64,000 nucleotides of DNA from an uncultured Neomegalonema sp. (lineage in GTDB: Bacteria; Pseudomonadota; Alphaproteobacteria; Rhodobacterales; Rhodobacteraceae): NCBI GenBank assembly GCA_937922185.1, contig CAKZUT010000070.1, positions 2,856 to 66,855 on the forward strand. The letters run 5' to 3'. Positions within the stretch are counted from its first letter, which is position 1. Each line of letters starts with the position of its first letter. A model generated the notes under the pieces. It was not told the DNA's origin, searched no databases, and worked only from the letters and a program-made list of their open reading frames with translations. The position numbers were made by a program, and so were the translations under genes. This document shows positions 3,175 to 56,359 of the stretch, in pieces.

Positions 3175-3186
3175 GGCGGGGTGCTC

Positions 3187-5970: not shown

Positions 5971-6094
5971 AGGATCACCCCGCTACCTGACCGGGAGGCC
6001 CATTGCCCAATTCTCGGCAAGCGGCTGACCGCAAAGATGGATTCCGCGATCAGGTCGCGGAATGACAGTGCTGTCCGTAACGATCCGATTCCGC

Positions 6095-6982
6095 TCATCC
6101 GCTCACCCGCTTGGCTTGCAGAGTCTGGTGAATCATCATCAGCGCGGGGGTCGGCGGGGTATCGGTGCGGTGAATGGCGAAGGTCCATCCGGCCTGCCGG
6201 GCCATGTCTTTCAGGGCCGCGCGGCGGGCTTCCAGCTTGTCGCGATAGGCGTCGCGCAGAGATTCCGCACGGTCGGCATCGTACCGCAGTCCCCCGCCGA
6301 TGCTCTCGAACAGGACACGGCCCGAATACGGAAAGGCTTCCTCGACCGGATCAACCACCTGTAACAGAATGCCGCGCACCCGACGGGCAACTGCCGAGGA
6401 CAGGGTTTTCGACAGCGCATCAAGATCGCCGAAGAAATCGGAAATGAACAGCGCGCGTGATCCCATGGTGAAGGAGGTTTCGGGCGGTGTGCCGGTCTCG
6501 GCGGGGCTTTCGGAGGGCAGCGAGAGGAAATTCGACAGGCGATTTACGCCCGTGCGGCCCTGCATCACCTTGCCTGCATCACCGCGCATCAGGGCGAATC
6601 GTTCATCGCCGCGCTCCAGCAGGATCGCGGTCGAAAGGGCCAGCACAGCGGCGCGGCGGCCTTTGGTCGTCTGCACGCCCCTGGACGCGAATTGCATCGA
6701 GGCGGATTCGTCAGGCCAGAGAAAGACGCTCTGGGCTGTCTCCCACTCGGTTTCGCGCACGAAGAGGTCATCGGATCGGCCCGAGCGCCGCCAGTCGATA
6801 CTGCCGAGAGAATCCCCCGGCTGGGCATGTCGGTACTGCCAGAAGGTCTCACCCGATCCCGCCGAGCGCCGACCATGCACACCCCAGATCGAGGCGGCGG
6901 CCCGTTCGGCCTCGGCCAGCAGAGGGGGCAGGGCGGCTGAGGCTGCGCTCGATTCGGCGGAAAGCTGGGTGGATGGGTTCAC
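6095..6982 (-). CDS. DUF58 domain protein (vWA-like partner of MoxR)
   Basis: YRHAQPGDSLGSIDWRRSGRSDDLFVRETEWE matches the DUF58 signature region. There is a 4-nt overlap with the moxR stop (6979-6982). Confidence 0.8.
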   Translation of the reverse strand: MNPSTQLSAESSAASAALPPLLAEAERAAASIWGVHGRRSAGSGETFWQYRHAQPGDSLGSIDWRRSGRSDDLFVRETEWETAQSVFLWPDESASMQFASRGVQTTKGRRAAVLALSTAILLERGDERFALMRGDAGKVMQGRTGVNRLSNFLSLPSESPAETGTPPETSFTMGSRALFISDFFGDLDALSKTLSSAVARRVRGILLQVVDPVEEAFPYSGRVLFESIGGGLRYDADRAESLRDAYRDKLEARRAALKDMARQAGWTFAIHRTDTPPTPALMMIHQTLQAKRVSG

Positions 6983-7998
6983 CCGCAGGCCCTCGCGACA
7001 GCTTCGTCGATCACGGCTTCGAGGGTGACGCCTTCGGCCTTGGCCGCGAAACCCAGGGCCATGCGGTGGCGCAGGGCAGGTCTGGCAAGGGCGACCACAT
7101 CATCCAGCGAGGGAGCGAGGCGACCGTTGAGCAGGGCGCGGGCGCGGCTGGCCAACATCAGGGACTGGGCCGCGCGTGGTCCCGGCCCCCAGGCGACGGA
7201 ATCACGGACCTGATCCGGTGCGCTGGTATCCTCGGGGCGGCAGGAGCGGACGAGCGAGAGAATCGCCTCCGTCACCTTGTCGCCCACGGGCGCGCGGCGG
7301 ATGAGGTTCTGCAAATGCATCAGCCCGTCGGGATCGAGAATCGCCTTTGCCTCGCCCTGCTCCACGCCGGTGGTCGCGACGAGGATCCGGCGTTCCTCCT
7401 CCAGCGTGGGATAGCCGACGACGATCTCCAGAAGAAACCGGTCAAGCTGCGCTTCGGGCAGGGGGTAGGCCCCCTCCTGCTCAATGGGGTTCTGGGTGGC
7501 GAGAACGTGAAAGGGGGCGGGCAGATCACGCTGCTGGCCCGCGATGGTCACCTGCTTTTCCTGCATGGCTTGCAGCAGGGCGGACTGAGTGCGTGGGCTG
7601 GCGCGGTTGATCTCGTCAGCCATCAGAAGCTGACAGAAAACCGGCCCCTGAATGAACTTGAACATCCGCGAGCCGTCGGAACCGGTTTCCAGCACTTCCG
7701 AACCGAGGATATCGGCGGGCATCAGGTCGGGGGTGAACTGGACACGCTTGTTATCGAGGCCGAGCACGGTGCCCAGCGTATCGACCAGCAGAGTCTTCGC
7801 CAGACCGGGAACGCCGACCAGCAGGCCGTGTCCGCCGGAGAGAATCGCAGCGAGGGTGAGTTCGACCACCTCGTCCTGGCCGACGATGCGCTTGGCAACC
7901 TCGCGGCGGACGGCGGCAAGGGTTTCGGCGGCGTTCTCCGCCTCTGCCACGGGGTCGGCACCTGATGCGGCGGGCGCGTCGGCAGTCATGCTTTCCAA
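6979..7998 (-). CDS. MoxR-family AAA+ ATPase
   Basis: GHGLLVGVPGLAKT (Walker A), LLMADEINRASPRTQSALLQAMQE (Walker B and sensor), VLATQNP. Size 339 aa. Confidence 0.9.
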   Translation of the reverse strand: MESMTADAPAASGADPVAEAENAAETLAAVRREVAKRIVGQDEVVELTLAAILSGGHGLLVGVPGLAKTLLVDTLGTVLGLDNKRVQFTPDLMPADILGSEVLETGSDGSRMFKFIQGPVFCQLLMADEINRASPRTQSALLQAMQEKQVTIAGQQRDLPAPFHVLATQNPIEQEGAYPLPEAQLDRFLLEIVVGYPTLEEERRILVATTGVEQGEAKAILDPDGLMHLQNLIRRAPVGDKVTEAILSLVRSCRPEDTSAPDQVRDSVAWGPGPRAAQSLMLASRARALLNGRLAPSLDDVVALARPALRHRMALGFAAKAEGVTLEAVIDEAVARACG

Positions 7999-15546: not shown

Positions 15547-16245
15547 ATGCCGACGATTGCCCTTGTGGATGATGACCGCAATATCCTGACTTCCGTGTCC
15601 ATTGCTCTGGAGGCGGATGGATTTGAGGTACGGACTTATTCCGACGGGGCGGCGGCCCTTGCCGCGCTCAGCCAGAATCCGCCGGATGTGGCCGTGCTGG
15701 ATATCAAGATGCCGCGCATGGACGGGATGGAACTGCTGCGCCGCCTGCGCCAGAAATCGGATATGCCGATCCTGTTTCTCACGTCCAAGGATGAAGAGAT
15801 CGACGAGGTTCTCGGCCTGCGAATGGGGGCGGATGACTACATTCGCAAGCCGTTCTCCCAGCGCCTGCTGATCGAGCGTATCCGCGCGGTGCTGCGCCGC
15901 CGGGATGCCCAGATCGAGGGCGGCGAGCGGCAGGAAAAGGACAAGGTGATGACGCGGGGCAGCCTGACACTTGACCCGCTGCGCCATTCCTGCGTGTGGA
16001 AGAGCGAGCCGGTCACGCTGACGGTTACGGAATTCCTGATCCTTCAGGCGCTGGCCACGCGGCCCGGTTTTGTGAAAAGCCGTGATGCCCTGATGGATGC
16101 CGCTTATGACGATCAGGTCTATGTCGATGATCGAACCATCGACAGCCACATCAAACGCATCCGCAAGAAGTTCCGCGTCGTCGATGACGATTTTGCAGCA
16201 ATCGAGACCCTTTATGGCGTCGGATACCGGTATCGCGAAACCTGA
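15547..16245 (+). CDS. chvI: OmpR-family response regulator ChvI
   Basis: [28 protein letters not shown]...[14 protein letters not shown]...winged-helix C-terminus YGVGYRY. Divergent from pckA and followed by chvG. The start was set at the ATG at 15547 rather than the longer track ORF. Confidence 0.9.
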
Positions 16246-17965
16246 ACCCCCGGCCTCTCAGGCCCCGCCGCTCTCCGCGCTGGATGGTGAGGGGCCGGAG
16301 TTCGTCGCTATGGATGCGGCGGGCGACGGCAAAGTCGCGCGTCCCGTCCTGCGCCCTGCACGACCCGGCCTCGCAGGCGAAATGAGGGCTTTGCTGGTAA
16401 GCCCCATGCGCTCGCTGACCCGGCGGATCGTGGCGACCAATCTCGTCGGTCTGGCCATACTCGTTGCAACGGTCCTCTATCTCAACCAGATGCGCGATGA
16501 GCTGATCGATGTGCGCGTCGAATCTCTGGCGACGGAGGCGAATATTCTCGCCACAGCCATTGCCGAGATCGCCTCGACGGGGCCGGAGAAGGACAGGATC
16601 GATGCTCAGGCGGCGGTCGAATTGCTGCGCCAGCTCACCCTGCGGACGGACCAGCGCGCGCAATTGTACCGCAATGGTCGCCTGATCGGGGATACCCGCG
16701 ATTTCCAGCCCGCCCGTGCGAAGGTCGAGACGCGCTACCTGCCGCCTCTGGACGGGGCAAGCGGCCTGCTCGGCTGGATCGAGGAACTCTACAGCCGCGC
16801 GGTGCGGCTGGTGCAGCGGCGCAATCTGCCTCTCTATATCGAAAGCTCGGTGCCCGGCATCGAGGAAGACCCGGCGATCTGGACCGCGCAACTTGGCGAC
16901 ACCGCCACGTCCCAGCGCGCCAACAGCGAGGGGGAGCTTATCGTATCCGTTGCTGTCCCGGTGCGGCGGCTGAAGGTTATCATGGGCGTCCTGATGCTCT
17001 CGACCGAGGGCGGGGATATCGACCGGGTGATCCGGGCAGGGCGCATCGAGATCCTGCGTATTTTCGTGGTGGCGGGGCTGGTGTCGATCCTGCTCGCGAT
17101 TTTGCTGGCGAACGGCATCGCGCGACCTTTGCGTCGGCTGGCCAGGGCCGCCGATGCCGCGCGGGCCGACGAAGGCCAGCTTGTCGCTTCCGAGCGGGTG
17201 GAAATTCCCGATCTGACGTCCCGTGCTGACGAGATCGGCAATCTTTCCGGCTCGATGCGCCGCATGACGGACGCTCTCTACGGGCGGATCGACGCCATTG
17301 AGAGTTTTGCCGCCGATGTGGCCCATGAGATCAAGAATCCGCTTTCCTCCCTGCGATCAGCCACGGAAACGCTCGACTATGCGAAGACCGACGCGGCGCG
17401 GGAGCGTTTGTACACGGTGATCCGGGAAGACGTGGACCGTCTCGACCGTCTGGTTACGGATATCTCCAATGCCTCGCGTCTGGATGCCGAACTGGTGCGC
17501 GAGGAACGGGCACCCTTCGATCTGGGAGCATTGGTCGAGACGACCGCCGACATCCTCGCACAGAACGCCGTCGCCCGGCGGGTGCGTATCGTGGCGGATG
17601 TGCCGGACGGCGCGCTGACGGTGCGGGGGCTGGAAAGCCGGATCGCGCAGGTCGTCTCGAATATCGTGCTGAACGGCATTTCCTTCAGCCCCGAGGACGG
17701 AACGCTGCGGGTGGCCGCGTGGCGCGATGATCTCAAGGCCGCTGTCATCACCGTGGAGGATGACGGGCCGGGTATCCCGGCGGACAATCTCGATTCGATC
17801 TTCGAGCGTTTCTATACCGAGCGCCCGGAAGGAGAGGCATTCGGGCGGCATTCAGGGCTTGGCCTGTCGATCTCCCGCCGGATCGTGGAGGCCCATGGCG
17901 GGACGATCCGGGCCGAGAACCGCGAGGGGGGCGGCGCTCGCTTCATCGTGCGGCTGCCCAGTTGA
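16214..17965 (+). CDS. chvG: sensor histidine kinase ChvG/ExoS-like
   Basis: Two TM segments, HAMP, H-box [17 protein letters not shown]-box and G-boxes ([23 protein letters not shown]). The start is uncertain: ATG at 16214 or 16310. The track ORF start at 16097 overlaps chvI too far. Confidence 0.85.
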
Positions 17966-17983: not shown

Positions 17984-20542
17984 TCAGATCTTCGCGATCG
18001 CCCGTACCAGCGTATCGCGGTCATAGGGCTTTTGCACCACCGGCACGCCGGGAAACAGCTCGGTCAGGTCGCGTATCTCGCCATAGCCGGTCGCAAAGAC
18101 GAAGGGTATGCCGTCCCGCGCCAGCCGTGATGCCACCGGCGTCGATGTCTCCATTCCGAGATTCACGTCAAGCAGGGCGAAATCGAAGACCGTCTCCTCC
18201 ATGGCCCGGATCGCCTGTCCGTTGCTCGATGTTGTGACGACCGCTTCCGCGCCCAGATCCACCAGATAGCTTTCGGCATCGAGCGCGATGATCATGTTGT
18301 CCTCCACGATCAGAACCTTGCCCATCTGCACCGCAGGCACCGCCGCAGGGGGCGTTTCGGCCACATGCTCAACCCTGCGATTGGCGAAGCGGTCGATGCT
18401 TTCCGAGGGCAGCAGGAAGGACGCACGTACCCCCGCAGGATCGTAGTCGATTTCGGAAGTGCCGTTCAGTTCATAAGGGATCGAGCGTTCGATGATCGTG
18501 GTGCCGAAGCCCCGCCGGGTGGGTCTGGCCACGGGCGGGCCTCCGGTTTCCTGCCATCCGATTTGCAATTGCCCGTCGCTCTGACGCTCAAGCGTGACCG
18601 TGACCGTCCCTGTCGAGTCGGCCAGCGCCCCGTATTTGGCGGAGTTCGTCAGCAATTCGTGGATCACGAGCGCCACTGTCGAATAGGCATGGGGATGCAG
18701 CATCGCATCCGGCCCCACCATGACCACCCGGTCCCGTTTGGCGCCCAGATACGCGGCGGTCTCGGTCTGGATCAGGTCGTGGAGGGAGGCGGGCGACCAG
18801 TTCTCCCGCGTGATCTGATCATGAGCGCGGGCGAGGGCATGGACGCGGCCCCCGATGACATTGGTGAAGCTGACGATATCGCTCTGGCCATCGGCACTTT
18901 GTGCGATCAGACTCTTGATGAGGTTCAGGATATTGCGGACCCGATGGTTCAGTTCCGCGATCAGCAATTCCTGTTGCTCCTTCGAGCGGATCTGGTCGCG
19001 TATGTTCGCGCTGGCCATACGCAGCACCACTTCCATCAGCGTCACGCGCAGGGACTCGGCGGTCTGCAATTCAATGTCCGTCCAGGGCGCGCTGTGGTGG
19101 CGCAGGATCTGCTGCCATGCCGCGAAGCTCTGGCGCGGAGTGAGCCGTGTGCTGTTCGGCCCCATCGTCATGGGTTTTTCGGGATTTCCGGCCCAGCGGA
19201 CCGATTGGACGACCTCCTGCCGGAAGAGGACGATATAATCCCTCGGTGTCCGCGATACCGGCAGGACCATCGCTCCCGCCGCCCTCTCCGCGAAAGCCTC
19301 CGCTTCCGGGAAGGGCTTTGACAGGCATTCCGTGGCGAACAGGCGGCTTGCCGTCGTGGTATTCAGCGAGGGGACAAGGGCCTCGAATTCCTCGCGGGTC
19401 GGTGTCTGCCCGACCGAGCGGAACTCGCCGTCGATCCACCCGACCGCGCCGTCATGGGGAATGACGGGAGCAGTCGCGTCGATGATCGCCTCGAAATTGT
19501 CACTGACCGAGACGTTCTCGGCAAGCTGTGCCATCAGCCGGTCATGAAGCTTGCGGCCCGCTTCCGTGGCCATCCGTTCGGCATCGCCCTGTTTCTGGTC
19601 GAGCAGAAACGAGAAGAGCTGCGCGAACAGTTCCGCCGCCGTACGGACCGGATAGGACGGCACCTTTGCCGTCTCGTGATGACAGGCGAACAGCCCCCAC
19701 AGCTTTCCCCGCCGCAGGATCGAGATCGACATGGAGGCGCTCACACCCATATTCCGCAGGTATTCCAGATGGATGGGCGAGACGGCACGCACCGAACTCA
19801 TGCTCATGTCGAGGGGCTGGCCTTCCGGGTTGAGCACCGGTTCTATCTCGATGCCCTCGTCATGCACATCCGCGATCACACGCAGCAGGTTCCGCGTATA
19901 GAGTGCCCTCGCCTGCCTCGGAATGTCAGAGGCGGGATAACGCAGCCCGAGATACGGCTCCATTCCCGGCGCACAGGTTTCCGCGATCACCTCGCCGCTG
20001 TCATCGGGGGCAAAGCGATAGACCATCACCCGGTCATAGCCGGTCAGTGCCTTTATCTGCCGCGCGGCGATATCGCAGAGATGCTTTGTGTCCTGTGCGC
20101 CGGTCATCCGTTCGATCATCGGTTTGACATAGCTGGACGGGTCCGCCTGACGGTTCGCCTCGCACCGCTCTCCCTCGATGATGATGGAGCTGCCCGACTG
20201 GTGGACCGCAATATCGAAGGAAGTGTCTCTGTCGGTCAGGCGCAGGTTGAAGAGACGTCCCACCGAATCCGGCCCGCCCAGCATCTGAAGCTGCGAGCGA
20301 AGATCGTGGATCGCATCGGGGGTGAACAGGGTGTTCAACGGCGTTCCGGCCCGGAGAGGCTGGTCCAGTCCGAGAATATCCCCGGCATTCCGCGACACAT
20401 GGTTCACTATCCAGTCGCCGGTAACGGAAATCAGAAAGCCGAAATACTGCACCCGTCCGGGGGTGTGGATCGGCTCACGGTCGCAATTGGTCAGGTCGAC
20501 TTCCTCGCGGGCGAGGCTGTGGTCGATCTCAGGCGAGTTCAT
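17984..20542 (-). CDS. bphP: bacteriophytochrome: PAS-GAF-PHY photosensory core, HWE-type histidine kinase and C-terminal receiver
   Basis: The N-terminal DLTNCDREPIHTPGRVQ contains the biliverdin-binding Cys. A GAF/PHY region follows, then the HWE/HisKA_2 H-box ELNHRVRNILNLIKSL and a receiver (KVLIVEDNMIIALDAE...LLDVNL). Confidence 0.9.
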   Translation of the reverse strand: MNSPEIDHSLAREEVDLTNCDREPIHTPGRVQYFGFLISVTGDWIVNHVSRNAGDILGLDQPLRAGTPLNTLFTPDAIHDLRSQLQMLGGPDSVGRLFNLRLTDRDTSFDIAVHQSGSSIIIEGERCEANRQADPSSYVKPMIERMTGAQDTKHLCDIAARQIKALTGYDRVMVYRFAPDDSGEVIAETCAPGMEPYLGLRYPASDIPRQARALYTRNLLRVIADVHDEGIEIEPVLNPEGQPLDMSMSSVRAVSPIHLEYLRNMGVSASMSISILRRGKLWGLFACHHETAKVPSYPVRTAAELFAQLFSFLLDQKQGDAERMATEAGRKLHDRLMAQLAENVSVSDNFEAIIDATAPVIPHDGAVGWIDGEFRSVGQTPTREEFEALVPSLNTTTASRLFATECLSKPFPEAEAFAERAAGAMVLPVSRTPRDYIVLFRQEVVQSVRWAGNPEKPMTMGPNSTRLTPRQSFAAWQQILRHHSAPWTDIELQTAESLRVTLMEVVLRMASANIRDQIRSKEQQELLIAELNHRVRNILNLIKSLIAQSADGQSDIVSFTNVIGGRVHALARAHDQITRENWSPASLHDLIQTETAAYLGAKRDRVVMVGPDAMLHPHAYSTVALVIHELLTNSAKYGALADSTGTVTVTLERQSDGQLQIGWQETGGPPVARPTRRGFGTTIIERSIPYELNGTSEIDYDPAGVRASFLLPSESIDRFANRRVEHVAETPPAAVPAVQMGKVLIVEDNMIIALDAESYLVDLGAEAVVTTSSNGQAIRAMEETVFDFALLDVNLGMETSTPVASRLARDGIPFVFATGYGEIRDLTELFPGVPVVQKPYDRDTLVRAIAKI

Positions 20543-47666: not shown

Positions 47667-48371
47667 ATGCGCGCCTTGCTGTTTCTGCTGATCTTTCTGA
47701 TTCCGGTATCCGCCCATGCGCGCGGTTGTACGTTGGCGCTGGTTCTGGCAACCGACACGTCGTCCTCCATCGACGAGGATGAATACGCGGCCCAGATGCA
47801 GGGGCTGGCCGGGGCTTTCCGCACCGATGTGCTGCGCGAGGCGCTGCTGGGGACGCGGGGCATCCATGTCGAGGCAACCGTCGTCCACTGGAGCGGATAC
47901 AGGCATCAGGAACAGGTCGTGCCATGGACCGCGCTGACCGGGGCCGCGATCATCGACGATTTCGCGGACCGCATCGCCGCCGTGCCCCGCGCCGAGGACG
48001 GTCAGGCGACGGCGCTGGGCAAGGGGCTGGAATTCTCGGCAAGGCTGCTGCACGGGCGCGACTGTGACCGGCACATCATCGACCTGACCGGAGACGGGGT
48101 GAATAATTTCGGGATCGGGCCGCATTACTTCGCCGAGCGGGGCGATTTCGACGGCATCACCATCAACGGCCTTGCCATCCGGGGGGCCTTGCCCGACCCG
48201 GAGCCGTATTTCCGCGAGCACGTCGCGCGCGGGCCGGGGGCCTTCGTGATGGTGGCGGGTGGCTACGGGGAATATGCGGAGGCGATTCTGGAAAAACTGC
48301 TGCGCGAGATTTCTCCGCGCTACACCCTGCGCGTCACGCCTTCCCCGCGTCTTCCGGCGGCAGGGCGGTAA
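47667..48371 (+). CDS. DUF1194 (vWA-like) secreted protein
   Basis: Signal peptide MRALLFLLIFLIPVSAHA, MIDAS-like LATDTSSSID, DLTGDGVNN. Its 3' end overlaps the convergent STAND gene by 38 nt. Confidence 0.75.
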   Translation: MRALLFLLIFLIPVSAHARGCTLALVLATDTSSSIDEDEYAAQMQGLAGAFRTDVLREALLGTRGIHVEATVVHWSGYRHQEQVVPWTALTGAAIIDDFADRIAAVPRAEDGQATALGKGLEFSARLLHGRDCDRHIIDLTGDGVNNFGIGPHYFAERGDFDGITINGLAIRGALPDPEPYFREHVARGPGAFVMVAGGYGEYAEAILEKLLREISPRYTLRVTPSPRLPAAGR

Positions 48372-51318
48372 AGAACCAGCCGGTGATGAGATCATGCATC
48401 GCCGATACCGTCAGCGCGCGCGGGTCCGTGCGCCCCAGCAACGCCGCCAGCCGGTCGATCCGCCCCAGTTCATCGGCGATTTCCACCACCACCGTCGCCC
48501 GTTGCGGATCAAGGGGGCGCTGCGCGTCACAGTGCAATTCACGCGGCCAGAGCGGTGTCTCGCGCGCGATGTCATGCAGCACGGCATGGACTGCTTTCGA
48601 TGATGCCGTCCGCAGGCAGGTCACGAGCGGTGCATGAAGATCGGGGTTCGCGCCCCGCATGACCGGCGCGAAGGCCGGGGCAATGCCCGACAGGTCCACC
48701 GTGCTTTTCGCGATGGCCTGCCCGGTGCGGCCTATGGCGCGATGCAGGTCGGCCAGCGATATCGCCTCCCCCCGCAGGCCCGCGATCCCGTCGAAGACCG
48801 CGCGCTCCGCCGATCCCTGCGCCGGGGTCGCCATGCCGTCCCGCCACCGATACGCCGCCGGGCGCAGCGCGGGGATCTGCCGCCCCGCGATGATATCCGA
48901 CCGTCGCAGGCGCAGGCGATCGACCGCATGATCGAAGGCATCGACCTGCATGTCGTATTCCTCGATGACCCGGCCCGACAGAAAGGCCCGCCAGTCATAG
49001 ACCCCGTTGATCTGCGCCAATGCTCCGGCCAGAGCCGCTGCCGCCGCTTCCCCCTCCACCGCCGCCTTCGACAGCACCAGTTCCCAGACGGGCGTATGGA
49101 ACAGCCCCCCCAGCATCGCGCGCCGGAACCGCTCCACGGCCAGCCCGGAGGGATCATCTCCGAGCAGGGCGAGATAGCGGTCGGCAAGCTGCACGACGCG
49201 GGGGAAATCGGCCCCGGCGAAGCGGGCGGCGATCATCCGCTCCATCCGGGCGATGGAATCCGGCACATCGCCGGTCATCGCCCTTCTGCGCCCGGTCATC
49301 CGCTCCGCATTCAGGATCGCCGCCTCGGCCCTTTCGCGCGCGGCGCCGGACAGTGCGGCCCGCTCCGCCGCGTCCATCGGCATATCCACTCTGGCCTTGA
49401 CCGGTGCCCGCCAGTCCACAGGCAGGATTTCGAGATCATCACCGAGTTCCTGCCGGATATCCTGCGCCGCTCCGTGTGACAGATCGGGAGGGGTCGCCCC
49501 GGTCCCCGCAAGGGCCTCGTAATAATACGCATGAGCCATGCGCGTGGCATCGGAAAGCGCCTGCCAGCGGCCCCGCGCCGCGTCATCCCCGTGCGGCCCT
49601 TCCCGGTACCACGCCGCCGCCGCCATGCATGTCGCGCGGGCGGGCGCGGCCATTTCCGGCACGATCAGCCGCCGCAGTTCCGGTCGGGGCCGCAGCGCGA
49701 AGCCGCCCTCATCGGGTGTCATCAGCCAGGTTTCGCGCGCCAGCGCATCGTACAGCGCCCCGGCCTCCGCCGGACCGATCTTCCGCCCCGGCCCCGCCGG
49801 TAGCGACCGGATCAGATCGGGGGTCAGGGTTCGCAGGATCACCGCGCCCTCAACCAGCGCCCGGATATCCGGCTCCCTGATCCGGCCCGGAATACACCGG
49901 TACAGCACCATCCGGGCGGTTTCGACCGTCGCGGCTTCCCCGGCCTCCAGATCCCGGATCAGCGGCTCCAGCGCCTCCGGGCGGCTATGGGCAAAGCGTA
50001 CCCCCATCAGCAGGGCCATCGGATGCCCGCACAGGGCCTTGGTCAGCCGCCGCCGCCTCGCCGTCCCGTTCAGGTGCCGTGCGCCGGTCAGGGTGGCCAG
50101 GCGCGCATCCTCATCGGCCAGCAGCGCCATGCCGTCCTGTTCGGCAAGGCCCGCCAGATGGACCCCCCGCTCCGTCGGCCCGAAGACCTGTTCCATCCCC
50201 GACGGCTGCGCTCCGCCCCCCGATACCACGCTCCGCAGGCCGGGCAGGCGCGCACGCAACATCGCTTCCAGCGCGAAGATCATGTCCACGGTGCCGCCCC
50301 CGCGCCGGTCCACCGCCTCGAAACTGTCGAACAACACGGCAATTGGCCGCGCCCGCAGCGGGGCGGCCCAGTCCTGCGACAGCGCATCGAGGGTCACGGT
50401 ATCGAGCCAGCCGATCTGGGACTCGAAACTGCGTTCCCGCGCCGCCACGCCCGACACGGGCAAGTCCCGGCGCAAGGCCCGCAACCCGTCATCCACGGCC
50501 TTGACCATGGCGGGATCATCCAGCTTGTGTTTGATCCCGGTCGCGCACTGGCGCAAAAATTCTCCCAGGATTTCGACCGGCTTGCCGGACATGAGCTGTC
50601 GCCGGTCGAAATCGATCACCACGGTCAGGGGCGAATCCGAGCGCGGCTGCCAGTAGCCGAACATCCGCGCCAGCAAGGCCGATTTCCCCGCTCCCGCGAT
50701 CCCGGAGAGACAGACGGGCCGCGCATCCCCGTCCTGTCCCCGCAGAAACCGCGAGAGACGGGCGCGTTCGGCGTCATAGCCCCGGTGCCGGTGCGGCAGG
50801 ACAAGGGTCAGGTCGCGGCGGCGCTGAAGTTCCTGAATCCGCCGTTTCGCCGCCGTTTCCAGCACATCGAGCGCCGCCCCGTCGAGCGGTGCGACATGGC
50901 GGGCGAACTGCGCCGCCTCCAGCATCGCGCCGACATCGCGCATCTCCGCCAGCAGGGCCGCGTCATCCTCGCCATGGCCCGATATATCCACGCGAACCGC
51001 TTCTTCCGACAACAGCCGCCGCAGGGCGATGCCGAACCTGTCTTCCGGCCACAGAGGCGGTGCCTGCGCCAGCAGCCGGTCGATACCTGCCCGACTGACC
51101 AGCGCCTGAAACTGCCGCACCCGCGCATCGGGGGTCAGCACCCAGCCATAGCCGGGCGTCCCTTCCTCCAGCACCTCCGCCACATGCCCGGACAGCTCGC
51201 GCCACAGCGCCTGCCGCTGCGCCGTATCCAGCCCCAGCGCATCGGCCATGGCGGCGGGGGTGAACGCCCCCGACACCGCGCCCAGTTCCAGCGCCGAGCG
51301 GCAGAGCGGCGAGGTCAT
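48334..51318 (-). CDS. large STAND-like P-loop NTPase (994 aa) with an N-terminal domain of about 170 aa and a helical C-terminal region of about 570 aa
   Basis: Walker A LSGIAGAGKSALLARM (50680-50703), preceded by an FLRG-type helix. Candidate Walker B IAVLFDSFE. A long Ala/Leu/Arg-rich helical C-terminus. No signal peptide or TM. ATGA start/stop overlap with the upstream gene at 51315-51318. Confidence 0.75.
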   Translation of the reverse strand: MTSPLCRSALELGAVSGAFTPAAMADALGLDTAQRQALWRELSGHVAEVLEEGTPGYGWVLTPDARVRQFQALVSRAGIDRLLAQAPPLWPEDRFGIALRRLLSEEAVRVDISGHGEDDAALLAEMRDVGAMLEAAQFARHVAPLDGAALDVLETAAKRRIQELQRRRDLTLVLPHRHRGYDAERARLSRFLRGQDGDARPVCLSGIAGAGKSALLARMFGYWQPRSDSPLTVVIDFDRRQLMSGKPVEILGEFLRQCATGIKHKLDDPAMVKAVDDGLRALRRDLPVSGVAARERSFESQIGWLDTVTLDALSQDWAAPLRARPIAVLFDSFEAVDRRGGGTVDMIFALEAMLRARLPGLRSVVSGGGAQPSGMEQVFGPTERGVHLAGLAEQDGMALLADEDARLATLTGARHLNGTARRRRLTKALCGHPMALLMGVRFAHSRPEALEPLIRDLEAGEAATVETARMVLYRCIPGRIREPDIRALVEGAVILRTLTPDLIRSLPAGPGRKIGPAEAGALYDALARETWLMTPDEGGFALRPRPELRRLIVPEMAAPARATCMAAAAWYREGPHGDDAARGRWQALSDATRMAHAYYYEALAGTGATPPDLSHGAAQDIRQELGDDLEILPVDWRAPVKARVDMPMDAAERAALSGAARERAEAAILNAERMTGRRRAMTGDVPDSIARMERMIAARFAGADFPRVVQLADRYLALLGDDPSGLAVERFRRAMLGGLFHTPVWELVLSKAAVEGEAAAAALAGALAQINGVYDWRAFLSGRVIEEYDMQVDAFDHAVDRLRLRRSDIIAGRQIPALRPAAYRWRDGMATPAQGSAERAVFDGIAGLRGEAISLADLHRAIGRTGQAIAKSTVDLSGIAPAFAPVMRGANPDLHAPLVTCLRTASSKAVHAVLHDIARETPLWPRELHCDAQRPLDPQRATVVVEIADELGRIDRLAALLGRTDPRALTVSAMHDLITGWFFTALPPEDAGKA

Positions 51319-53405
51319 GGCCCGTCCTCCGCCACCGCCCCGCCGAAATAGGCATCCGCCACCCCGCTCACATGGTCGGAAACGAACCGCGACAGGGTTT
51401 CCAGCGGCACATCATCCCCGGCATGGGAGGCGAGGATGCCGCCCAGAAACTGGAGGCTCTCGTCAGATAACGGTTTTTCGGTATTGCGCGCGCCCCGCTC
51501 CATCAGCCATTCCACGAACCGGCCCTTGAGGTCGGCGAAATCCTCGCCTCCGATCACCGAATGGATCACCGTTTCGGGGGGCAGGCCGCTGATCGACACC
51601 GCGCGGGGCAATCCGATCAGTACCACGCGGACATCGGGCATCTGCTGAATCTGATTATAGATCGTGGCGAGAAATTCCCGCCCCGAGGCGTTCGACAGGT
51701 CGCTGCGGTCGAGGTCATCCAGCACGATCCACACGATCTGATCGCTCAGGCGCTCACGGATTGCCTGCGCCACGGCCCCCACCAGTTGCCGCACATAGGC
51801 GGGGGTCGTTGTCTCCGGGGCTGCGGGCAGGGTCGGCACCAGATCCTCGGCGAAGCTGCCCAGCGTATTGGCCGCCATGCTGTAGGCATCCACTGCCATA
51901 TCGCTGGCGCGAAAGAGAATATGGTGATGCTCCGGCCCCCGGAACAGCGCGCGCAGGATATCGACCGAGAAGGACTTTCCCGGTCGCCGCAGCGCCGTGG
52001 CATCCGGGTCCACCTCGATCCGCATGATCTGTTTCTCGCCGTCGAACAGGGTTTTCAGATCATCGAGAAACCCCTTGCGCCCGAAGACCGGATGCCGCCC
52101 GTCAAGGCATCCCCGAAAGGGCCGCAGCACCCCGGCTTCCGCGATATCGGCCAGCTTTCCGGCCCTGTCGAGCTGTCGATGGATGGCGGTCAGGGTGATC
52201 GCGACATTGACCGCCTTGGTGCGCTCGCCGGGATTGGCGGGCGGGCGTTTCGCCTTCAGCCCCATGTAATGCAGGCCCGCCACCTCGCCCGTCTCGTCGA
52301 GCAGCAGCCCGCCGGAGGAGCCTTGCACGGTGCTGGCATCATGGAAAAAGCGATGCGGCCTGCGCGCGCCCGCCTGGAGCTGTTCGGTGCCGCGCGTCAG
52401 GGTCTGACCGTTTTCGGACGGATGATGCACGGCCCAGACGGCTCCGGGCAGCGCCCGCCTTTTCGGCAGGGTGTACCATCCCCGTTGCAGCCCCGGCACC
52501 CCGTCGAGCCGCAGGACCGCGAAATCGAGCCGGTCCGCCACCGAATCGAGCCAGTCCTTCCGCAGGTTGAAATCGTCCCACCAGTAATCCGCCGCGTCGG
52601 GGGGTTCGAGCGGCGCATCCTCGCCCCGCGCGATCAGCCAGTTCTCGCTCACATCGAAGACCGAACTGTCGGCATCCTCCAGCCCCGTCGTCTCCGAGAA
52701 ATCGAACTGTACCCACAGCCGCCCCTTGCGCGGGAGCGGATGGGGCACATGCGAGACGACATGCCAGTTGGTCAGCACCGTCCCCGGCCCGATCAGAAAT
52801 CCCGTGCCGCTGACCGGCTTACCGGCGTCGTCGATGGAGACGATCCGGCATAATCGCCGCCGCGCTTTCAGGATCGCGGGCAGTAAATGGCCGGGATCGG
52901 TCCAGACCTCGTTATCCGAGGTCAGAGCATGGCGCGAGGCCCGGTGCAGGATCGCACGCGGGACATCGACGGGCGCGTCGAGCGCGGCCCCCATGGCCCG
53001 CCCGATCCCGACCCGCGCCTCTTCCGCCGCCCCGGCATCGGCTCCCGTCACGAGGCCCGCCGCCAGCGCGGCACTGAAACAGGCGACGATCTCCAGCGGA
53101 TCACCCAGCGCCGCAAGCGCCAGCCGCATCGCCTCGCCGCTGTCACCGGGCCGGGGGGCGGGGTCGCATTCCGCGCAGGCATCGGCCCCCAGCACGACCG
53201 CATGGATGAAGTTCTCCGGCCCGCCTTCGGGTCGGCGCTCGGTCAGCCAGCTATCGTAGAACTGCCGGAACCGCGCGCGCGAGGGCGCGATCCCCCCTGT
53301 CGGGGCGCGCAGGCGATCATAGAGAGCGGCAACCTGCGTCAATCGTCCGCCCCTTCGTTCAGCAGCCCGGTACGGAAGGCCCCGTCGGCCTTCGCCGCCA
53401 CGCAT
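51315..53405 (-). CDS. chymotrypsin-fold serine protease domain fused to a C-terminal P-loop NTPase-like domain (696 aa)
   Basis: Protease triad candidates: GTGFLIGPGTVLTNWHVV (His 52761-52763), LDFAVLRL (Asp 52524-52526), GSSGGLLLD (Ser 52314-52316). This is followed by PVFGRKGFLDDLKTLF, an AxxxxGKS P-loop (ALRRPGKS, 51972-51995) and hhhhDD (VWIVLDDLD). The start is uncertain: ATG at 53405 (67-nt overlap with the upstream gene) or TTG at 53340-53342, which overlaps the upstream stop. Confidence 0.75.
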   Translation of the reverse strand: MRGGEGRRGLPYRAAERRGGRLTQVAALYDRLRAPTGGIAPSRARFRQFYDSWLTERRPEGGPENFIHAVVLGADACAECDPAPRPGDSGEAMRLALAALGDPLEIVACFSAALAAGLVTGADAGAAEEARVGIGRAMGAALDAPVDVPRAILHRASRHALTSDNEVWTDPGHLLPAILKARRRLCRIVSIDDAGKPVSGTGFLIGPGTVLTNWHVVSHVPHPLPRKGRLWVQFDFSETTGLEDADSSVFDVSENWLIARGEDAPLEPPDAADYWWDDFNLRKDWLDSVADRLDFAVLRLDGVPGLQRGWYTLPKRRALPGAVWAVHHPSENGQTLTRGTEQLQAGARRPHRFFHDASTVQGSSGGLLLDETGEVAGLHYMGLKAKRPPANPGERTKAVNVAITLTAIHRQLDRAGKLADIAEAGVLRPFRGCLDGRHPVFGRKGFLDDLKTLFDGEKQIMRIEVDPDATALRRPGKSFSVDILRALFRGPEHHHILFRASDMAVDAYSMAANTLGSFAEDLVPTLPAAPETTTPAYVRQLVGAVAQAIRERLSDQIVWIVLDDLDRSDLSNASGREFLATIYNQIQQMPDVRVVLIGLPRAVSISGLPPETVIHSVIGGEDFADLKGRFVEWLMERGARNTEKPLSDESLQFLGGILASHAGDDVPLETLSRFVSDHVSGVADAYFGGAVAEDGP

Positions 53406-56140
53406 TCGAGATCATGGGCGAAGTTCTGCGACAGGCTCTCGCCCCCGAAATGCAGCCCGCAGAATCGCGCCTTGCCATGCAGCGATACGATGGCCGACCC
53501 GGACGAGCCGCCCATGGTCGTGGCATCATGGCTGAAACTCCAGCCTGCCGGATCGCCCTCCAGCGTACCGGGGCGCTGCATCACGAAGCCGGGACTCATG
53601 TACTGCACCCCGTATTCGTCGCCGTAGAGTTCGCCGATCCGATCCCAGAAGGCGAGAAACTCCTCCGCGTCATCCTGTGCGTCGGGTCCGGCATTGCGGC
53701 CCGGCGGCTGCGCCGGATAGCCCATGACCAACAGCTTTTGCACATCCTCATCGGTGGTCGAGACCCGGCCCGTATCGATAGGTTCGGGCGGATCGTCGCC
53801 CTCCGCGTTCTGCCCGATTTCGAGGATCGCCATATCCAGCTTGCCCAGATGCACCGCGCGCCCGATGCGATGGCGCCCCGCCGTCGCGATGCCGGTGACG
53901 GGAAAGCGCATCGTGTCGTCGGTGCCGTCGGGATCGAAGACGACGGAGGCCGTGCGCCGCATCCTGAAGGCCTGTTCCCCCTCGGCGGCGGGCAGTCCCA
54001 CGGCAAAGGTATCGAGGACATGGCGGTTGGTCATCACCCGGTTCCTGCCGATCACGAAGCCGGTCCCCGCCTGCATCCGGCCCCGTCCGGCGACGTCGAT
54101 ATCAATGCGTCCCGTGCGTTGGGCCAGTGCCTGCCATTTCCGGCGGGTCGGCACCAGATCACCGCGCCAGTCGCCGATATCCTCGTCCAGCACCTCGCTG
54201 CCGTCCCGCCGGATGCGGATCGCCGGACGCCCGGTCAGGCGCACCAGCGCCTCCAGCACGGCCCGCGCCTCGGTCGCCGCGTTGCTGTCGGAATCGTCCG
54301 GCGTGTCGCCGCGTATAATGGCATCCATGACCGGCGCGATCCGCTCCAGCGCCTGCGTCTGGACCCCGGCATCGGTCAGACCCGGCGCGCGCGCCGCCCG
54401 GCGTTTCAGCGCGGCCTCGGCGGTGTCGATGATTGTCCGCGCCCCTTCCTGCCGCACCCGTGTCAGGGCCTGCGCCGCGCTCTCGACACCTGCGCTTTCG
54501 AGGCCCGATCCGATACTGACCGACAGGCGTTTCATCGCCGGGGCCAGCGCCATCGGCTCCGTTGCGCGTCCCACCACCAAGGGCGCGGCGGCCAGCATGA
54601 TCTCCGGGTCGGGCGCAGGTGCGATCAGGGCGGCCAGACCCGGCGAGGGCATGGCGGGCATGGCCGTCTCGATGACCCGCGCGCCCGGTTGTCGGCGCAT
54701 TTCCCGATCCGCCGCGATGAAACTCGCCTCCGCCTCATAGGGGCCGCCCGCCGGATCGGTGCCGAGGATCGCGCGGATCGGGTCATCGCCCGAGGCGGCG
54801 GGCGGGGCGGGAATATCTCGCAGCGGCAGGTCGAGCAGGGCCTCCGCATCCACGATTCCGGTGCCCGTCGCCTGCGAATCCCAGTCCGCCGGTGTCCGTG
54901 CCGTTGCGCGCAGGGCCGACCGGAACAGCGCCTGCACCGGCACGCGGCGCGACCGGGCCTCGGCCTCGACCGCCGCCGTCCCGAACCGTTCCAGCCACAG
55001 GGCCGCGACCCCCGCCGTGATCGCGGCGGCAAAGGATGTGCCCTGTCCCCGGTCATCGATCGTATCGGTTGACGGATCATCCCCCGTGCGCCGCGCCACA
55101 TGAACGTTCTCGCCCGGTGCCGAGACATCCACCGCCGCTCCCCGGCATGACCCGCGCCAGATTCGTCCGTCCGAATCCACCGCCGCCACGGCGATCACAT
55201 TCGCGTCCCAGGCCGGGTAGGTGACTATCCTGACGCAGTTCCCCGCCGCCGCGAGAACGATCATATCCGCCGCCACTGCCCGCGCGATGGCCCGTCGCAG
55301 GGCGCGTCCGGCAATTGGCCCGCCCAGAGACATGGTTACGATGCGGCATCCGTCATGGCGGGCATGATCGACCGCCCGCGCCACCGCCACGCCCGAACCG
55401 ATCACCACCGAGTTCACTGCCCGGATCGGCACCACGGTCGCGCCGGGGGCCGAGCCACAGAGCGTAGAGGTATTCCGGCTGGCAATCACCGAGGCCGTCG
55501 CGGTGCCATGTCCCGGCGAGCGCATGTCCGGGGATAGCGGGTCGGTCGGGTCGGCCTTTCCCGCCATGAAATCGAACCCCGCCGCGCGGTCGATTACCCC
55601 GTCGAGTTCGCGGTGATCGGCCACCCCGGTATCGGGATGCCCGATGCGGATTCCCGTGCCCGACACCCCGTGGGCCGCGCGCGCCCGGTCGGCGCGGATC
55701 AGCTTGATCGCCCAGTGCGGATCATCCCGTGAGGGGGCGTCCGACAGGCAGAACAGGCCCGCAATGGCCCCCACGCTCTCCGGCGCGCCCCGGATGCTGA
55801 CGGCATCGACATAGAGCGGGCCGGTCTCCGGCGTTACCGACACCAGACCGAGGGCCACGCGCAGGTCTTCGGCCTCATGGAACAGGTAATCCGGCGGCTG
55901 TTCTATGGGGACGCCTGCGAATAGCAGGATTGCCAGCACGGGGTCATCCCCGGAATAGGGCAGCAGGTCGAACCCGTCCGCGCCCAGCAACGCCGCGATC
56001 CGTTTCCGTTCGGCATCGAGATCGGGGGGCGTGGCATATTCGAGGGTGAAACCGAGCCGGTCATCGGGGTAGCCGAGGGTATCGCTGCGCCGCGAAACGC
56101 CCGCCGCCGCCTTGAATAAATCGAGCAAAACAACCCCCAT
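53339..56140 (-). CDS. dual serine protease: N-terminal domain of about 150 aa, subtilisin-type S8 peptidase, helical linker of about 240 aa, and a C-terminal chymotrypsin-fold protease
   Basis: S8 triad: IGHPDTGV (Asp 55631-55633), GHGTATAS (His 55508-55510), AAAGN oxyanion Asn, GTSFAAA (Ser 55034-55036). Second protease: GTGFVIGRNRVMTNRHVLD (His 54020-54022), LDMAILEI, GGSSGSAIV (Ser 53501-53503). No signal peptide recognised. Start is the ATG at 56140; the track uses a GTG at 56158. Confidence 0.8.
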   Translation of the reverse strand: MGVVLLDLFKAAAGVSRRSDTLGYPDDRLGFTLEYATPPDLDAERKRIAALLGADGFDLLPYSGDDPVLAILLFAGVPIEQPPDYLFHEAEDLRVALGLVSVTPETGPLYVDAVSIRGAPESVGAIAGLFCLSDAPSRDDPHWAIKLIRADRARAAHGVSGTGIRIGHPDTGVADHRELDGVIDRAAGFDFMAGKADPTDPLSPDMRSPGHGTATASVIASRNTSTLCGSAPGATVVPIRAVNSVVIGSGVAVARAVDHARHDGCRIVTMSLGGPIAGRALRRAIARAVAADMIVLAAAGNCVRIVTYPAWDANVIAVAAVDSDGRIWRGSCRGAAVDVSAPGENVHVARRTGDDPSTDTIDDRGQGTSFAAAITAGVAALWLERFGTAAVEAEARSRRVPVQALFRSALRATARTPADWDSQATGTGIVDAEALLDLPLRDIPAPPAASGDDPIRAILGTDPAGGPYEAEASFIAADREMRRQPGARVIETAMPAMPSPGLAALIAPAPDPEIMLAAAPLVVGRATEPMALAPAMKRLSVSIGSGLESAGVESAAQALTRVRQEGARTIIDTAEAALKRRAARAPGLTDAGVQTQALERIAPVMDAIIRGDTPDDSDSNAATEARAVLEALVRLTGRPAIRIRRDGSEVLDEDIGDWRGDLVPTRRKWQALAQRTGRIDIDVAGRGRMQAGTGFVIGRNRVMTNRHVLDTFAVGLPAAEGEQAFRMRRTASVVFDPDGTDDTMRFPVTGIATAGRHRIGRAVHLGKLDMAILEIGQNAEGDDPPEPIDTGRVSTTDEDVQKLLVMGYPAQPPGRNAGPDAQDDAEEFLAFWDRIGELYGDEYGVQYMSPGFVMQRPGTLEGDPAGWSFSHDATTMGGSSGSAIVSLHGKARFCGLHFGGESLSQNFAHDLECVAAKADGAFRTGLLNEGADD

Positions 56141-56359
56141 AATACCTGTTGATAACACAATTCAACCGGTTTACCGTACATGAGAATTACTGGGGCAACA
56201 ACAACCACATCTTGGAAAAAGCGGTATTTTGTTCATGACGAACAATCCGTTAGATGTCTTGTTCCGTATGCTCCGTATAAGTGGCTTTCGGATCGGATGA
56301 GGGGGCATTCCGACCTGAAATAGATGTATTCTTTATTGACCCGTTAAAGGAGTATACCC
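56141..56359. promoter_or_regulatory. AT-rich divergent intergenic region between the protease/NTPase operon and the tyrosinase operon
   Basis: It is visibly much more AT-rich than the flanking DNA (runs such as ATAATACCTGTTGATAACACAATTC and GTATTCTTTATTGACCC). AAAGGAG lies 7 nt before the tyrosinase ATG. Specific -35/-10 boxes were not assigned. Confidence 0.45.

Follow-up and report, generated by a model that had tools for sequence, protein, structure and literature searches.

We analysed a stretch of 64,000 nucleotides (the window) from an uncultured Neomegalonema sp. of the Rhodobacteraceae (GenBank assembly GCA_937922185.1, contig CAKZUT010000070.1, positions 2,856 to 66,855) and found that its minus strand carries an operon of three genes, here called A, B and C. 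We judge, with a probability of roughly 0.7, that this operon is a CARD-NLR-type system in which an NLR-like sensor is coupled to a protease cascade. The assignment rests on analogy with described systems, in which a trypsin-like protease and a STAND-type ATPase are encoded together with an effector that is itself joined to a second trypsin-like protease. The kind of system has already been described; what is new here is protein A, whose predicted structure suggests a cytoplasmic pro-subtilase zymogen.

All three open reading frames (ORFs) were found on the minus strand: A at 53339-56158, B at 51315-53405 and C at 48334-51318. Their GC content at third codon positions, 0.80-0.82, was of the coding type in a genome of about 65% GC. 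An earlier reading of the sequence alone had described them as three tightly coupled genes, and the ORFs, their composition and their junctions bore this out. The stop codon of B and the start codon of C share the ATGA at 51315-51318. At the other junction, the TGA stop of A (53339-53341) overlaps a TTG in the frame of B (53340-53342) to give TTGA, in line with the earlier reading. Because homologues of B begin at the position of this TTG, which has a Shine-Dalgarno-like GAAGGGG upstream of it, the start of B is most likely TTG 53342, giving a protein of 675 rather than 696 amino acids and reducing the A/B overlap from 67 nt to the TTGA. Homologues of A begin at ATG 56140, within an ORF that extends to a GTG at 56158, and this ATG is most likely the start of A. 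With these corrections, the residue numbers of the earlier reading are offset by 6 for A and 21 for B. Gene A is hence placed at 53339-56140 (933 amino acids; the proposed pro-subtilase and trypsin-like protease effector), gene B at 51315-53342 (a LypA-like protease with a P-loop domain) and gene C at 48334-51318 (994 amino acids; an NLR-like STAND NTPase). The only terminator-like hairpin of the region, with its T-run, lies on the same strand at 48292-48320 (hairpin 48302-48320), 14 nt past the stop of C, and the region upstream of A is intergenic and AT-rich. The overlapping junctions, the sole terminator after C and the AT-rich intergenic region upstream together indicate that A, B and C form one operon.

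No N-terminal signal peptide and no transmembrane (TM) segment was found in A, B or C, and the maximum of hydropathy over 19 residues stayed below 1.9 in all three and was located within domain cores, in agreement with the earlier view that none of the three carries an export signal. Pfam and homologue searches also upheld the domain content that had been read from the translations, namely S8 plus trypsin in A, trypsin plus P-loop in B and STAND in C. Moreover, the catalytic triads and Walker motifs survived alignment of the families, in which each of the named residues was either invariant or at least 90% conserved.

Protein A matched Peptidase_S8 (7.6e-32) and Trypsin_2 (1.3e-11) in Pfam. 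Its S8 subtilase catalytic domain, supported by both Pfam and Foldseek, occupies residues 140-460 (54761-55723; this and all further domain coordinates on the minus strand), where D170, H211 and N301 were invariant in the family alignment and S369 was at least 90% conserved. The trypsin-like protease of chymotrypsin fold at the C-terminus (residues 675-916; 53393-54118) has H707, D769 and S880, all three invariant. Between the two proteases lies a helical linker domain of about 210 residues (461-674; 54119-54760), kept within the family and 30-46% identical in relatives by BLAST, with helices at 469-483, 532-543, 555-584, 591-609, 619-637 and 653-674 in the AlphaFold2 (AF2) model. Homologues of A formed more than 120 clusters with the same full-length fusion of S8 and trypsin, about 925 amino acids long.

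The full-length AF2 model of A had a predicted local distance difference test score (pLDDT) of 87.6 and a predicted TM-score (pTM) of 0.88. In this model, residues 1-110 (55811-56140) form a propeptide-like domain. DSSP assigned strands to residues 28-34, 58-61, 69-78 and 101-104 and helices to residues 41-52 and 83-97, all with pLDDT above 90, and the resulting beta-alpha-beta-beta-alpha-beta unit (residues 28-104) has the topology of subtilisin propeptides. In Foldseek, the alignment of the model with unprocessed pro-subtilisin E (3whi_B) reached 429 columns at a target-normalised TM-score of 0.78, and those with mature subtilisins about 300 columns (target-normalised TM-score 0.86-0.89, E about 1e-18). 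The longer alignment to the pro-form indicates that the N-terminal domain itself superposes on the propeptide. Like A, pro-subtilisins of the I9 type such as 3WHI carry a beta-alpha-beta-beta-alpha-beta domain before the S8 domain, and it is their unprocessed form on which the model superposes; A differs from them in being cytoplasmic, in having an N-terminal domain without I9 sequence similarity and in its fusion to a helical domain plus a trypsin-like protease. These features of the model suggest that A is a cytoplasmic pro-subtilase zymogen, and the propeptide-like fold speaks for the earlier idea that A is matured by loss of its N-terminal region.

A loop of low confidence (residues 111-130; 55751-55810) separates the propeptide-like domain from the S8 domain, with pLDDT 47-58 throughout and below 50 at residues 114-122. 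Glu121, which lies in this loop within a PES motif (codon 55778-55780), was at least 90% conserved. The closest solved relatives of the B protease were Glu-specific endopeptidases (1p3c, 5.3e-11), and because of this the conserved Glu121 is attractive as a candidate cleavage site. We infer from this combination of a loop and a matching protease that residues 111-130 may be where A is cut.

Protein B matched Trypsin_2 (4.8e-14) and, weakly, AAA_22 in Pfam, and about 70 full-length homologues with 34-78% identity were found. The trypsin-like protease of B, recognised by Pfam and by alignment, spans residues 160-400 (52143-52865), and its H194, D273 and S343 were invariant. It is followed by a P-loop NTPase-like domain (residues 401-675; 51318-52142) with PGKS at 454-457 and VLDDLD at 539-544, in which G455 and D542 were invariant and K456 and D543 at least 90% conserved. 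When this domain was compared with the NTPase domain of C using hhalign, the probability was 31%, only a weak signal. Residues 1-158 (52869-53342) were modelled as an all-helical N-terminal domain, with pLDDT 85 overall and 91-98 over residues 1-90. The AF2 model places six helices in residues 1-120, the number expected of a Death fold, followed by two linker helices. The model thereby makes this domain a candidate CARD/Death-like adaptor. A profile of the domain retrieved 61 clusters among 1.84 billion representative proteins; the full-length matches were B-type proteins of about 615-720 amino acids, and most of the shorter ones look like fragments. The notion that this domain might be a promiscuous adaptor was rejected, the domain being restricted to B-type proteins. 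An adaptor, EAD- or Death-like, shared among the unassigned regions of A, B and C was likewise rejected at the sequence level: all hhalign pairs between the N-terminal domains of B and C, the C-terminal region of C, and the N-terminal domain and linker of A gave probabilities below 5%.

Protein C gave matches to AAA_16, NPHP3_N and NACHT in Pfam that were all below threshold. Its 26 homologues were more informative, with Pfam matches to AAA_16 in 25, to NPHP3_N in 17 and to NACHT in 12. As these STAND families of Pfam match most of the homologues (25/26), the STAND-type assignment of C is sound. The NTPase domain (residues 181-430; 50029-50778) contains a Walker A motif, GIAGAGKS, at 206-213 and a Walker B region, FDSFE, at 330-334; G206, G209, G211, K212 and S213 together with D331 and E334 were invariant in the alignment. 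In front of it lies a conserved N-terminal domain (residues 1-180; 50779-51318), whose invariant residues include A9, G17, F19, W59, R66, D93, L99, A135, D169 and P175 and which, by analogy, would be the partner of the N-terminal domain of B. The presumed sensor region makes up the rest of the protein (residues 431-994; 48337-50028). It ends in a C-terminal block of about 110 amino acids that is separately conserved, giving its own BLAST match in relatives, and that includes the conserved residues W924, P925, D949, G952, W981, F982 and F983.

Matched by architecture, the operon belongs to a kind of system already described, which comprises the CARD-NLR family (which we take to be the one listed in DefenseFinder as 'CARD_NLR'), Kaur's 'System 3' and LypABC-like operons. 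From the sequence alone the architecture had seemed not to be assignable to any named system; it fits both the CARD-NLR family and 'System 3'. CARD-NLR three-gene operons encode a CARD-protease, a repeat-bearing ATPase and an effector that has a trypsin-like protease fused to it, and the Death-fold N-terminal domain of the protease from Azospirillum sp. TSO35-2 has been solved (8SS1) (Wein et al. 2023, PMC10312443). All three elements are present here: a trypsin-like protease with an N-terminal domain, a STAND ATPase whose C-terminal region is long, and a trypsin-fused effector. As in CARD-NLR systems, the protease bears a helical N-terminal domain of about 100 amino acids, the ATPase has an N-terminal domain of about 150 amino acids, the effector is fused to trypsin and all proteins are cytoplasmic. 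The operon differs from them in that the N-terminal domain of B was unmatched to solved CARD-like domains by sequence or Foldseek, and in that the effector is a propeptide-bearing S8 subtilase, whereas those named are an endonuclease, phospholipase or gasdermin (PMC10312443). A further difference is that three-gene CARD-NLR operons are enriched beside defence genes (PMC10312443), none of which was found next to the operon of the window.

Among alphaproteobacterial relatives, LypABC of Caulobacter crescentus is the only one studied experimentally (Banks et al. 2026, PMC13236601). LypA (592 amino acids) is a CARD-trypsin-divergent ATPase protein, LypB consists of an N-terminal domain, an AAA+/STAND domain and TPR, and LypC is a trypsin-endonuclease fusion; the CARD of LypA binds LypB's N-terminal domain, and both protease sites as well as the Walker motifs of LypB are essential (PMC13236601). 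Overexpression of LypABC is lethal and lyses the cells, its natural role is to release gene transfer agents (GTAs), no anti-phage role has been shown and the genes do not lie among immunity genes; how it is activated, and which lytic effector acts downstream of it, are stated to be unknown (PMC13236601). Taken from the published description, the match is at the level of architecture, with B as the counterpart of LypA, C of LypB and A of LypC, and both operons are alphaproteobacterial and lie outside a defence island. They differ in gene order, the effector gene being first here; in the effector, which has an N-terminal S8 domain with a propeptide and no Endonuclease_NS domain where LypC has a C-terminal endonuclease; and in B, which keeps GKS and DD whereas LypA is without canonical Walker motifs.

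'System 3' was defined in Alphaproteobacteria by trypsin-like, S8 and NucA domains together with a Death-like (bDLD2), trypsin and STAND protein, with NucA treated as a core component, and a proteolytic cascade was predicted for it (Kaur et al. 2020, PMC7159879). It shares with the operon the trypsin-like and S8 peptidases and, in B, a protein of the Death-like, trypsin and STAND type, although the Death-like identity of the B N-terminal domain is only a candidate one. In contrast to 'System 3', the operon has neither a NucA nor an EAD1 gene, NucA being absent from the whole window, and a separate NLR-like gene such as C is not emphasised in that description (PMC7159879). The type II gasdermin system of Lysobacter enzymogenes likewise combines an NLR-like ATPase with two trypsin-like proteases (Johnson et al. 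2022; Wein et al. 2023), but the gasdermin gene is absent here: no such ORF was found between 47.6 and 56.3 kb, where the operon is bordered by DUF1194 on one side and tyrosinase on the other. PADLOC matched its models 'nacht' (1.3e-19) and 'subtilase' (1.2e-13) to A and 'trypsin-like' to B (7e-4, and down to 2e-8 in homologues of B), and all three models presumably derive from accessory genes of gasdermin operons. The model PDLC03010 (1.3e-19) spans residues 561-916 of A in the numbering of the 939-amino-acid ORF. Membership of the Avs (AVAST) group was considered and rejected: C had no PADLOC match at E ≤ 1, and Avs1b gave only weak matches, in 7 of 30 homologues of B (best E 5e-5).

Reasoning from LypAB, from NLR systems and from the model of A, the trigger, the steps of activation and the outcome can be sketched. 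C would be an autoinhibited STAND NTPase whose C-terminal region senses a trigger and which oligomerises upon NTP binding. Its N-terminal domain would then recruit B through the helical N-terminal domain of the latter, as for LypB and LypA, so that induced proximity could switch on the trypsin-like protease of B, with the P-loop domain of B probably adding nucleotide-dependent assembly. A would be the effector, a cytoplasmic subtilase that its propeptide-like domain keeps latent and to which a second trypsin-like protease is tethered. In this scheme, either B or the trypsin-like domain of A may cut the loop behind the propeptide-like domain and so free the subtilase, which might degrade cellular proteins or activate a further lytic factor, leading to growth arrest, death or lysis. 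An NTPase-gated cytoplasmic protease system of conflict or cell death, with C as sensor, B recruited and A as effector, had been put forward by the sequence-only reading, and such a scheme agrees with the architecture, the active sites, the gene order and the literature. The antiviral part of that proposal is now only one of two live functions. The operon could serve abortive-infection defence (PMC10312443) or programmed lysis such as GTA release (PMC13236601); LypABC serves GTA lysis, and the programmed-lysis option stays live because of the housekeeping context and the alphaproteobacterial distribution of the operon.

A genome scan that took one genome per species recovered 33 related loci, about 20 of which have A, B and C in the same order. 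The hosts of this triad include members of the Rhodobacteraceae, Rhizobiaceae and Xanthobacteraceae, Azospirillum sp. A26, Paracoccus lutimaris, Roseovarius and the betaproteobacterium Lampropedia hyalina, and further A-B-C loci are L035, L037 and L117-L119. The genes around the triad vary between loci, most of them coding for transporters, regulators and metabolic enzymes, and such variation would be expected of a mobile cassette. The triad thus behaves as a patchily distributed cassette, constant in gene order within varying flanks. No relatives were found on viral contigs in IMG/VR. There is variation within this pattern: the first gene is without an S8 domain in L002, L012 and L020, a trypsin plus Endonuclease_NS protein is present in L035, L117, L010 and L022, and NucA and EAD1-trypsin genes occur across the relatives L035, L117, L010 and L008.

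Several results weigh against the assignment to a CARD-NLR-type system with a pro-subtilase effector. Neither Pfam nor PDB sequence searches found a match for the N-terminal domain of A, so that the propeptide call stems from predicted structure only. When the model of the B N-terminal domain was compared with the PDB by Foldseek, nothing scored below E=1, small helical bundles being hard for this program. Phmmer and profile searches of the PDB with B, its homologue from Azospirillum sp. A26, the B family and the N-domain profile returned protease domains only; none of these searches matched a CARD, and 8SS1 and 8SRZ stayed unmatched even at E ≤ 10. The missing PADLOC match for C counts on the same side, as do distant S8 plus trypsin homologues, of which one (L121) is found without B and C and two (L120, L122) belong to other systems. 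No defence island was found in the window or among the 10 sampled flanking genes of relatives. The neighbours in the window are housekeeping genes (DUF1194, EamA, an M20 peptidase, CobT, an M3 peptidase, phosphoenolpyruvate carboxykinase, a bacteriophytochrome, Liv-type transporter genes and RNase R), and defence-like neighbours among the related loci occur only in L035 (SLATT, DUF4062); the defence-island setting that had been anticipated is therefore not what the flanks of the window and of the sampled relatives display. Finally, the function of the operon and of the S8-type members as a whole is predicted by analogy.

The same machinery might instead be a domesticated lysis switch, used as in LypABC for GTA release or another form of programmed lysis and not against phage. 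We consider this unlikely, though by no means negligible. The triad is concentrated in Alphaproteobacteria, including Ruegeria pomeroyi DSS-3, and GTA clusters are carried by many of these orders, notably Rhodobacterales. In addition, LypABC, the sole studied alphaproteobacterial relative, is needed for GTA-mediated lysis and is likewise not among immunity genes (PMC13236601). On the other hand, no GTA or phage-like genes were found in the 64 kb window, the effector has S8 in place of the endonuclease of LypC, and both the patchy distribution and the reported enrichment of three-gene operons beside defence genes (PMC10312443) count against it. That the proteins are an ordinary proteolytic or secretion-associated set, for example mycosin-like or for quality control of the HtrA/DegS kind, with a regulatory ATPase and outside conflict or cell death, would suit the housekeeping neighbours and two weak similarities in NCBIfam: that of the S8 domain of A to the mycosin of the type VII secretion system (134 bits, cutoff 279), and that of B to MarP and DegS. 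However, these matches lie far under the family cutoffs, signal peptides, TM segments and secretion genes were not found, the distribution is patchy with varying insertion sites, and a STAND partner combined with multi-protease fusion is typical of conflict systems (PMC7159879); we therefore hold this explanation to be extremely improbable.

A different output is suggested by the genes divergent from A. A tyrosinase plus DUF7868 gene (56360-57787, plus strand) begins upstream of A and is followed by a PpoB2 copper chaperone gene (57797-58609, plus strand), both identified by Pfam; no signal peptide was found in the tyrosinase, and PpoB2 has a C-terminal TM segment. The divergent intergenic region between A and the tyrosinase (56141-56359) is AT-rich and contains a perfect palindrome, TTGTTC-N5-GAACAA (56229-56245), that is conserved together with flanking blocks in L035 and L037. 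On sequence grounds this palindrome is a candidate operator; for comparison, CdxB represses lypABC. The proteases could then be the activation cascade of an adjacent latent tyrosinase, with the oxidase as the output, in a manner resembling arthropod prophenoloxidase. Consistent with this, the tyrosinase-PpoB2 pair adjoins the triad in six divergent loci, namely the window, L035 (2981-5212), L037 (9977-12248), L117 (6444-8812), L001 (4719-6941) and L007 (4620-6868); the A and B proteins of the latter five are only 40-56% identical to those of the window, and the loci fall into two branches of the A tree. The absence of a signal peptide from the tyrosinase, the palindrome in the common intergenic region and the oxidative enzymes encoded close to related systems, namely a multicopper oxidase at L017 and a haem peroxidase at L122, point the same way, although the L017 oxidase, having a signal-peptide-like N-terminus, is probably periplasmic. 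Against it, 79 of 80 metagenome loci with the tyrosinase-DUF7868 cassette were without the triad and the remaining one was a close relative, so that the cassette, otherwise widespread, is independent; about three quarters of the triad loci are without the pair; and the idea of DUF7868 as a removable shielding domain was unsupported. A general linkage of tyrosinase and triad is rejected by these counts, and any linkage is at most lineage-specific. We regard a functional link like the prophenoloxidase cascade as a tentative possibility, and tyrosinase activation as the main purpose of the proteases as very unlikely.

A bolder version of the CARD-NLR interpretation would make A a pro-subtilase 'executioner' at the end of an NLR-to-protease cascade, a bacterial counterpart of the initiator/executioner arrangement that fills the effector gap of LypABC, with one sub-lineage also wired to a latent tyrosinase as an NLR-protease-phenoloxidase axis resembling arthropod melanisation immunity. 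As a whole we consider this quite improbable. CARD-NLR systems have been described only recently; they are rare, occurring in about 0.35% of genomes, and their activation and mode of killing are stated to be unknown (PMC13236601). In Alphaproteobacteria the S8 variant is common: its effector forms more than 120 clusters, which include model organisms such as Ruegeria pomeroyi DSS-3, Rhodopseudomonas palustris and Mesorhizobium, and its proteins are annotated only as 'S8 family serine peptidase', 'trypsin-like peptidase' or 'hypothetical protein' in genome records. If the proposal is true, a propeptide-locked subtilase freed by an NLR-controlled protease would be a testable executioner step for the CARD-NLR family, and processing at the loop 111-130 of A would provide a clean biochemical read-out. 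The locus also shows that such operons can sit outside defence islands, which bears on the question of defence versus repurposing, for example for GTA release.

Some of the related loci have features of their own. The triad of Ruegeria pomeroyi DSS-3 (L034) lies on the megaplasmid NC_006569 at 216248-224325 (SPO_RS20860, SPO_RS20855 and SPO_RS20850). Its B gene is annotated with a shortened coding sequence and an antisense 'hypothetical protein' over the 5' part, and tblastn covers it in two pieces, which suggests a frameshift or mis-annotation. In the close relatives L035 (13306-19689) and L117 (16999-20031), the operon runs on past C with a LypC-like trypsin plus Endonuclease_NS protein and a protein of 374-385 amino acids; L035 has in addition an EAD1 plus trypsin protein, beyond which the opposite strand carries SLATT/DUF4231 and DUF4062 genes. 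None of these post-C genes of L035 and L117 (Endonuclease_NS, the 374-385-amino-acid protein, EAD1, SLATT and DUF4062) is present in the window. A protein of TPR-S plus trypsin takes the place of B in L120, and in L122 the setting is a larger cluster, which also encodes Endonuclease_NS, a further S8, an AAA_5 ATPase, YcaO and the haem peroxidase, which is of animal type.

Roseovarius sp. M141 (L118, 17161-20150) has two peptidoglycan hydrolase genes, of the Amidase_2 and Peptidase_M15_3 types, encoded on the strand opposite to the triad and 1-3 kb downstream of it, with an unannotated gene of 357 amino acids coming before them; they are of note given the lysis phenotype of LypABC. A Paracoccus-like subfamily of triads (L014, L015, L016, L018, L021 and L023) has a conserved divergent block upstream, at about 2-7.6 kb of each locus, encoding a protein of about 950 amino acids with a weak FTP-propeptide motif, one of about 180-220 and one of about 695 amino acids. 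The versions of the small and the 695-amino-acid proteins in L021, the only locus scanned for them, were His_Phos_1 and an M28 peptidase. In Lampropedia hyalina (L017, 4209-6779), the gene for the multicopper oxidase, of 856 amino acids, ends 4 nt inside the S8 plus trypsin ORF on the same strand, an adjacency that may be coincidental.

Elsewhere in the window, two ORFs at 1072-5970 have lengths similar to those of A and B (927 and 700 amino acids) and were considered as a second copy of the system. This was rejected, as they encode BatA/DUF4159 and DUF7408 proteins that are unrelated to A and B; with a MoxR AAA_3 ATPase they make up a Bat/MoxR-type operon at 1072-7998 on the minus strand. The bacteriophytochrome gene (17984-20542, minus strand) encodes PAS_2-GAF-PHY domains, an HWE histidine kinase and a receiver, and a sensor kinase gene adjoins it at 16097-17965.

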